Made by a program: the position numbers and the translations under genes. Positions 10,278 to 53,556 of a DNA stretch of 64,000 nt are shown piece after piece (the first letter of the stretch is position 1; each line of letters begins with the position of its first letter). Below the pieces are notes generated by a model, which worked only from the letters and a program-made list of their open reading frames with translations, searched no databases and had not been told where the DNA came from. This DNA comes from Somniosus microcephalus (taxonomy: Eukaryota): contig CM126203.1 of the NCBI GenBank assembly GCA_052327205.1, positions 40,734,001 to 40,798,000 on the forward strand. Direction: 5' to 3'.

Positions 10278-53556
<43,279 letters not shown>

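Follow-up and report, generated by a model that had tools for sequence, protein, structure and literature searches.

Introduction

Minimal hammerhead ribozymes are a known component of the Penelope-like retroelements of metazoans. According to the available text of PMC4209133, these ribozymes are of type I, lack helix III, have a palindrome at positions 15.2–16.2 and carry an extra base before stem II. The same text describes a 4-bp helix I, a hammerhead in each of the two pLTRs of an element, a predominance of solo truncated copies, and a U3–A8 variant of the core; it makes no mention of sharks. The hammerhead family described here has all of these features, with ACGU as the palindrome in the copy under study and the U3–A8 variant in a sister family. 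It differs at the 10.1–11.1 pair, which is A–U or G–U here and G–C in the described ribozymes (where G10.1–C11.1 is highly conserved, not universal), and in the broken helix I of the copy under study.

Neptune and Nematis elements, as far as they are covered by the accessible parts of PMC8557442, bioRxiv 2021.04.23.441226 and PMC3846280, encode a reverse transcriptase (RT), a Zn-finger linker and a GIY-YIG endonuclease, and have partial-tandem pLTRs. An inverted 5'-truncated arm, an optional tail of 30–40 bp, target duplications of ~10–13 bp and 5' joints with microhomology are also described (PMC8557442, PMC3846280). The present family resembles them in each respect, but many of its copies also stop at a fixed 5' point, the front of the hammerhead, which goes unmentioned in those portions of the two papers. 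The Anolis Poseidon element PAc (PMC11167929, in the sections at hand) is similar in its two 3' end points ~30 nt apart, its AT-rich target, its uncut template RNA, and in that RNA ends at the cut site were not seen; in PAc, the ORF starts inside the hammerhead, whereas here the first in-frame ATG of a full-length element lies ~140 nt past the cut. Non-LTR retrozymes (PMC7229834, bioRxiv 2026.07.22.740005, both as partly available) share the type I hammerhead and a kinship with Penelope, and eight deleted loci found here fall into the same size range. Retrozymes form tandem arrays with mostly canonical hammerheads (PMC7229834, available text), unlike the copy under study, which is the solo end of a coding element. 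A literature search, conducted largely without subscription journals, supplements, or Repbase/Dfam, returned no shark Penelope hammerhead and no 5' stop at a ribozyme edge, although the supplements of PMC4209133 and bioRxiv 2026.07.22.740005 may list shark motifs.

Here, we describe a hammerhead-bearing insert in a 64,000-nt stretch of the Somniosus microcephalus genome (the window), and the family to which it belongs. The window copy is an ordinary copy of a known kind of element. Only one aspect is less ordinary, namely the start of many genomic copies just ahead of the ribozyme.

The hammerhead and the 131-nt insert

On the minus strand, positions 15258..15286 of the window read CUGAUGA-A-AGGUC-AUU-GACCU-GAAA-CGUU, which agrees letter for letter with the minimal type I hammerhead reported in the preliminary description. 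The motif consists of the CUGAUGA box (15286–15280), an extra A, a 5-bp stem II with a 3-nt loop (15278–15266), GAAA, CG and UU, and includes an unpaired base separating positions 9 and 10.1. Cleavage is predicted between 15258 and 15257 (minus strand). Positions are numbered below from the first C of CUGAUGA (0), which places the predicted cut between +28 and +29. AACGUU had been described as replacing helix III; this palindrome is present, but the working one is the 4-mer ACGU (15.1 to 16.1), with GUU as the triplet, while the A and U that flank this 4-mer belong to the core as positions 14 and 17 (numbering inferred from the accessible part of PMC4209133).

The whole insert occupies 131 nt (15156..15286, minus strand), including an optional “tail” of ~30 nt at 15156..15186 on the same strand. 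It is flanked on the plus strand by the 10-bp target-site duplication, AGTTTTAAGA, at 15146..15155 and 15285..15294. Since the right-hand copy has 2 nt in common with the core box, the true start of the insert lies between 0 and +2, and the earlier statement that the element starts exactly at CUGAUGA, correct as to the box, is accurate only to within 2 nt. Stem I had been described as lost. It is broken in the window copy, where its 3' strand (15254..15257, minus strand) reads AUUU instead of the AACU (or AUCU) of the family, leaving an A–A apposition at the core-closing pair followed by three chance A–U pairs between the flank and the mutated 3' strand; it is thus not wholly absent, and in the family it is intact. 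The 10.1–11.1 pair is A–U in the window copy, G–U in other copies and G–C in the sister families.

The insert lies 260 nt upstream of, and on the opposite strand to, a host exon of NAA15 type (NatA auxiliary subunit; 15547..15681, plus strand), which matches human NAA15 residues 135–179 (E 2e-23) and is preceded by AG and followed by GT. Because the exon match sets the orientation, the insert is antisense to the host gene, and the host pre-mRNA would carry its reverse complement. With stem I broken, no tandem partner, and an antisense position in a probable NAA15-type intron, the window copy is likely inert and unable to cut itself. Single-strand folding formed stem II in the window copy and in locus L008, but none of three copies adopted the hammerhead alone (z-scores −2.6, −1.0 and −0.3), which is uninformative for a ribozyme that works as a dimer.

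A descriptor consisting of the core box, a stem II of at least 4 bp and GAAA found a single match on the two strands of the window, namely 15258–15286, while an Rfam scan left the hammerhead model unmatched and returned only 2 weak, unrelated matches. At just 29 nt and unscored by Rfam, such a motif might have arisen by chance. Yet 30 dinucleotide-type shuffles of the window gave 0.2 matches for a stem II of at least 4 bp and 0.03 per window for at least 5 bp, there are more than 20,000 exact copies in the genome, and the motif has a fixed position within the terminal repeat of an element, which makes coincidence a negligible prospect.

Linkage to a Penelope-like element

A search with the window copy gave 50 matches (760 candidates, 40 scored), from which 30 loci were retrieved; 10 of the 30 extended upstream into a common sequence encoding the end of a GIY-YIG endonuclease. 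Conversely, among 30 loci picked by the endonuclease, 28 (including the query locus) had a copy of the repeat in the same orientation, a few hundred bases past the stop codon. The linked RT/GIY-YIG ORFs that the preliminary description had proposed to look for are thus present. One locus, L061, is a full pLTR–ORF–pLTR element with two 536-bp direct repeats that are 94% alike, each of which contains a hammerhead, 3.2 kb apart. Its ORF region contains DKG, the RT motifs, a C-x4-C-x2-C linker and GIY-YIG, and its first in-frame ATG is the one noted above. Pfam recognized RVT_1 with an E value of 8e-6 and GIY-YIG with E values between 1e-3 and 2e-4, none of which reached the curated cut-offs; those of L063 were 8e-6 and 1e-3, respectively. 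The copies carry frameshifts, and no uninterrupted ORF was present among 7 long loci extended to 8 kb. Judged by its linker motif, CX2-5CxxC, which Nematis shares, the parent appears to have a Neptune-type architecture.

The window insert differs from the end of the long coding copy L064 at 13 positions over 131 nt. This likeness, together with the linkage to the coding element, identifies the insert as a 5'-truncated end with a tail. Both the optional tail and the inverted 5'-truncated arm are present in the family. The motif is therefore very probably the hammerhead of the terminal repeat of an autonomous RT/GIY-YIG Penelope-like element, and the window copy a 131-nt 5'-truncated end of that element, likely inert.

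No RNA run was listed for the window stretch itself. Two raw RNA data sets labelled as the same species were aligned to L061 at 85% likeness, yielding 25,228 and 35,343 reads, with both strands represented over the short repeat. Neither the cut site nor −4 showed an accumulation of read starts or ends; since the reads derive from many copies and a fragmented library, cleavage is neither shown nor excluded by these data.

Abundance and conservation of the family

The family was sampled in 80 evenly spaced 10-kb stretches (800 kb) from the 16 largest contigs of the 6.45-Gb genome. The family profile gave 49 matches in this even sample, 44 of which extended beyond +50, corresponding by extrapolation to ~350,000 pieces in the genome. 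While the window copy itself matters little, this constitutes a large natural record of Penelope insertion ends. Exact core-plus-stem II matches numbered 20,160 and 6,452 in two overlapping upstream-base classes, or ~21,500 in total, with 0 matches in the control for the 20,160. The 5' length of the copies varied continuously, while the 3' ends fell at +96 to +105 in 17 of the 44 and at +128 to +132 in 12 of the 44. In PAc, two such 3' end points correspond to two internal priming sites (PMC11167929, in the part available).

The full hammerhead descriptor matched 9 times in the 800 kb, compared to 0 in each of 8 shuffles. Stem I has 4 bp in the family, AGUU/AACU in most intact copies, with a U–U mismatch in one subfamily. 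A sister family (1,132 exact copies) has UUGAAAA, the U3–A8 core variant, G10.1–C11.1 and a GUC triplet; it is young, and was found at L178–L189 and L190:1333-1369. Other copies carry U3–G8, a possible intermediate. In a third hammerhead family, stems I, II and III are all different and all paired, with AGCU as the palindrome; it was matched 4 times in the 800 kb (L068:660-698, L103, L108 and L113).

In an alignment of 9 rows, pairing holds for 97% of the cells and both sides vary in 8 of the 12 pairs, a level reached in 0 of 500 shuffles. However, 7 of the 9 rows had come through a pairing filter, and of the 10 two-sided cells, 2 are the chance pairs of the window copy, 7 belong to one family and 1 to another. 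The support for covariation therefore amounts to two independent lineages rather than a statistic: in the aligned sequences, the sister families appear to carry compensatory changes in two lineages. Across the family, the two core boxes and the pairing are kept. Family-wide conservation and the linkage to coding sequence both support the Penelope origin and the minimal type I hammerhead without helix III that had been suggested there.

A tandem array of a 59-bp unit (~62 copies, 92% alike) was observed at L328:1-3634 (G000:C1:25763000-25766634). It is derived from a repeat piece that includes most of the hammerhead, and was unmatched by the pairing scan.

A common 5' start at the front of the hammerhead

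Between a quarter and a third of the family cores begin 0–6 nt before the core, with a peak at −3/−4. The estimated genome-wide share starting there is 32–39% of exact cores; about 22 did so among the first 100 exact-core matches listed, and about 11 among 100 matches listed for the sister family. In a hand count of apparent 5' ends at the hammerhead front for 100 matches listed, 9 ended at 0, 10 at −1, 9 at −2, 19 at −3, 27 at −4, 12 at −5, 6 at −6, 1 at −7 and 7 at −8 or more; a single re-amplified composite accounts for 11 of those at −4. (This composite, seen in L222, L238, L244 and L115, consists of one stub with a 13-bp duplication plus flanks inside another repeat.)

The same edge was seen in the even sample, where 19 of the 44 pieces start at −12 to +6, several of them from older families whose alignment may merely end there, and 1 starts between −13 and −73. 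Loci picked by a downstream pattern were read by hand (30 loci, from which two duplicates were dropped): among the remaining 28, 8 start at −6 to −1, 0 at −7 to −57, 8 at +4 to +26, and 12 go further (Fisher P 0.014).

5' ends do not pile up at the cut site itself, where they make up about 1%. Among copies anchored at +32, 19,884 of 22,153 (about 90%) keep the base at +19, past the cut site, and of 100 exceptions listed, 7 start at +29. From the absence of such a pile, it follows that the template was uncut or re-joined, which agrees with the uncut RNA template of PAc (PMC11167929, available portion). The ORF-start loci described below contained some junctions between +28 and +33, but their number was too small to count. 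We also considered +25 as a stopping point and rejected it: in 18 loci (L310–L327), a G+C-rich repeat ends there, and these repeats are likely later insertions. The repeat abuts the element at +25, inside the palindrome, which is likely the preferred target of a DNA transposon.

Loci containing the start of the ORF seemed to behave differently from the stubs. The sample comprised 90 of 677 such loci, in 42 of which the upstream repeat reaches the hammerhead front; 37 of these pass it and 5 stop. Among the 41 of the 90 loci that have a long ORF, 25 pass and 2 stop. With duplicates collapsed, the numbers are 33 and 5, giving P values of 0.005, 0.06 and 0.13 against baselines of 0.33, 0.25 and 0.22, respectively, and a Fisher value of 0.04 against the downstream-pattern set. 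ORF-linked repeats thus stopped less often at the hammerhead front, a difference that is suggestive at 38–42 loci with approximate profile boundaries.

One explanation of the common start is that the RNA of the element begins at −3/−4, at a promoter start, and that the stubs arise by run-off copying after priming at the first tail. The 5' ends peak sharply at this position among the 100 matches listed, and the site agrees with the initiator consensus, YYANWYY. In the parts of the literature available, a shorter RNA 5' end led to a shorter product in vitro (PMC11167929), and the start of Penelope was located in the pLTR (PMC2377424). On the other hand, the ORF-linked repeats mostly read through (37 versus 5, n = 42), so that a plain model in which the RNA starts here fits poorly; long copies would need a continuous template, either tandem or circular, or a seamless jump. 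Copying of a cap G also fails to find support, as position −5 lacks a clear excess of G (4 G, 7 A and 5 T in a hand count of the matches listed, duplicates collapsed). The RNA reads on L061 show no pile of starts, but the fragmented library could hide one. On balance, we regard the promoter start as plausible, at a little under an even chance. Alternatively, the front edge of stem I may be where the reverse transcriptase stalls or is released, or the RNA may be broken at a splice-acceptor-like site at −2, which consists of a pyrimidine run followed by CAG. In two sister families, the 5' strand of stem I falls at this same edge, and in D. virilis the 5' end of helix I marks the end of an intron (PMC4209133, accessible text). 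Against a break at this site, a common spliced upstream exon was absent from 30 stub loci, in which the flanks were unlike the element in 18, an inverted piece in 11 and a long copy in 1, and none of the 15 RNA joints listed out of 41 lay at the −2 site. A pure stall, for its part, should affect the ORF-linked repeats as well. We therefore consider a stall or break possible but rather unlikely.

Short copies and two-hammerhead loci

The preliminary description had taken the repeat for a non-autonomous, retrozyme-like family, which would spread as small ribozyme-cut circles. A near-equal short length is indeed common, given the numbers in the even sample (19 of 44 starting at −12 to +6 versus 1 between −13 and −73), and in 8 of the 90 ORF-start loci, the middle of the element is deleted and two hammerheads lie on the same strand, 226–422 nt apart. 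Penelope repeats have also been linked to retrozymes (PMC7229834 and bioRxiv 2026.07.22.740005, in the portions available). However, the short copies start ahead of the core, not at the cut site as a cut monomer would, breakpoints differ among all 8 two-hammerhead loci, and the window copy has one hammerhead. Same-strand hammerhead pairs within 1 kb numbered 0 among 28 pieces in the 800-kb even sample and 0 among 35 in the 30 pattern-picked loci. The repeat proved to be linked to the coding element, not to a non-coding master independent of the ORF. As the truncated 3' end of a coding element, with continuous 5' lengths and with tandem pairs absent from two sets, the family does not bear out the earlier proposal: spread as circles is very improbable, the retrozyme reading of the window copy is largely refuted, and the retrozyme-sized forms with two hammerheads are rare by-products.

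Of the 49 ORF-start loci that lack a long ORF, 38 have part of the 3' region of the element following within ~400 nt of the ORF start. In the 90 ORF-start loci (L190–L219 and L250–L309), such 3' pieces are usually joined directly 30–190 nt into the ORF through pyrimidine-rich microhomologies, and are possibly the result of template jumps to a protein-bound region.

Proposed mechanism

Insertion would begin with nicking of an AT-rich target by the element protein, followed by reverse transcription primed at the tail. Copying would proceed through the uncut hammerhead and, in many copies, stop at the family-wide point at the front edge of stem I, after which the new end would be joined through 2 nt of microhomology. 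In the parent RNA, the ACGU palindromes may join the two hammerheads into a pair that cleaves after GUU, a reaction that is probably weak and helped by protein: within the text available, dimer cleavage via the palindrome is weak (PMC4209133), and cleavage by the PAc hammerhead is protein-assisted (PMC11167929).

A more elaborate and doubtful proposal involves two RNA templates. Stubs would be run-off copies of a linear RNA starting at the stem I front, whereas ORF-bearing copies would pass the stem I front because their template is continuous, being either tandem or a circle that was cut and re-joined. The deletion units of 226–422 nt with two hammerheads would be nascent retrozymes, born from such circles. 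If this two-template proposal is true, the Penelope hammerhead would perform a definite function in vivo. Its role can be tested with CAGE and circular-RNA data, given that the 5' edge is sharp, that ends are absent from the cut site and that the edge is weaker for ORF-linked repeats.

Other repeats in the window

At least six pieces of the family had been reported in the window, and the family profile finds 8 pieces at 7 places. One of the others is a head-to-head inverted insertion at 52270..52456, composed of a hammerhead arm and a tail arm and flanked by a duplication of ~16 bp. Its hammerhead has stem I and both boxes intact and one mismatch in stem II, and is about as intact as that at 15258–15286. 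A stub at 60619..60725 (minus strand) has a deletion inside the hammerhead. Two old pieces on the plus strand have no intact core, one at 57120..57221 and one, of the same family or a relative, at 8675..8762. The remaining pieces are an old, weak match at 15903..15988 (plus strand, E 0.002) and a tail-only piece at 57449..57490 (minus strand).

Three long related repeats, 72–93% alike, occupy positions 1045–4900, 37100–41360 and 46077–47427 of the window. A 79/91-bp tandem array is present at 5555–6064, and a MITE-like inverted repeat, whose two arms (67 and 110 nt) are 88–96% complementary, at 18483–19408.
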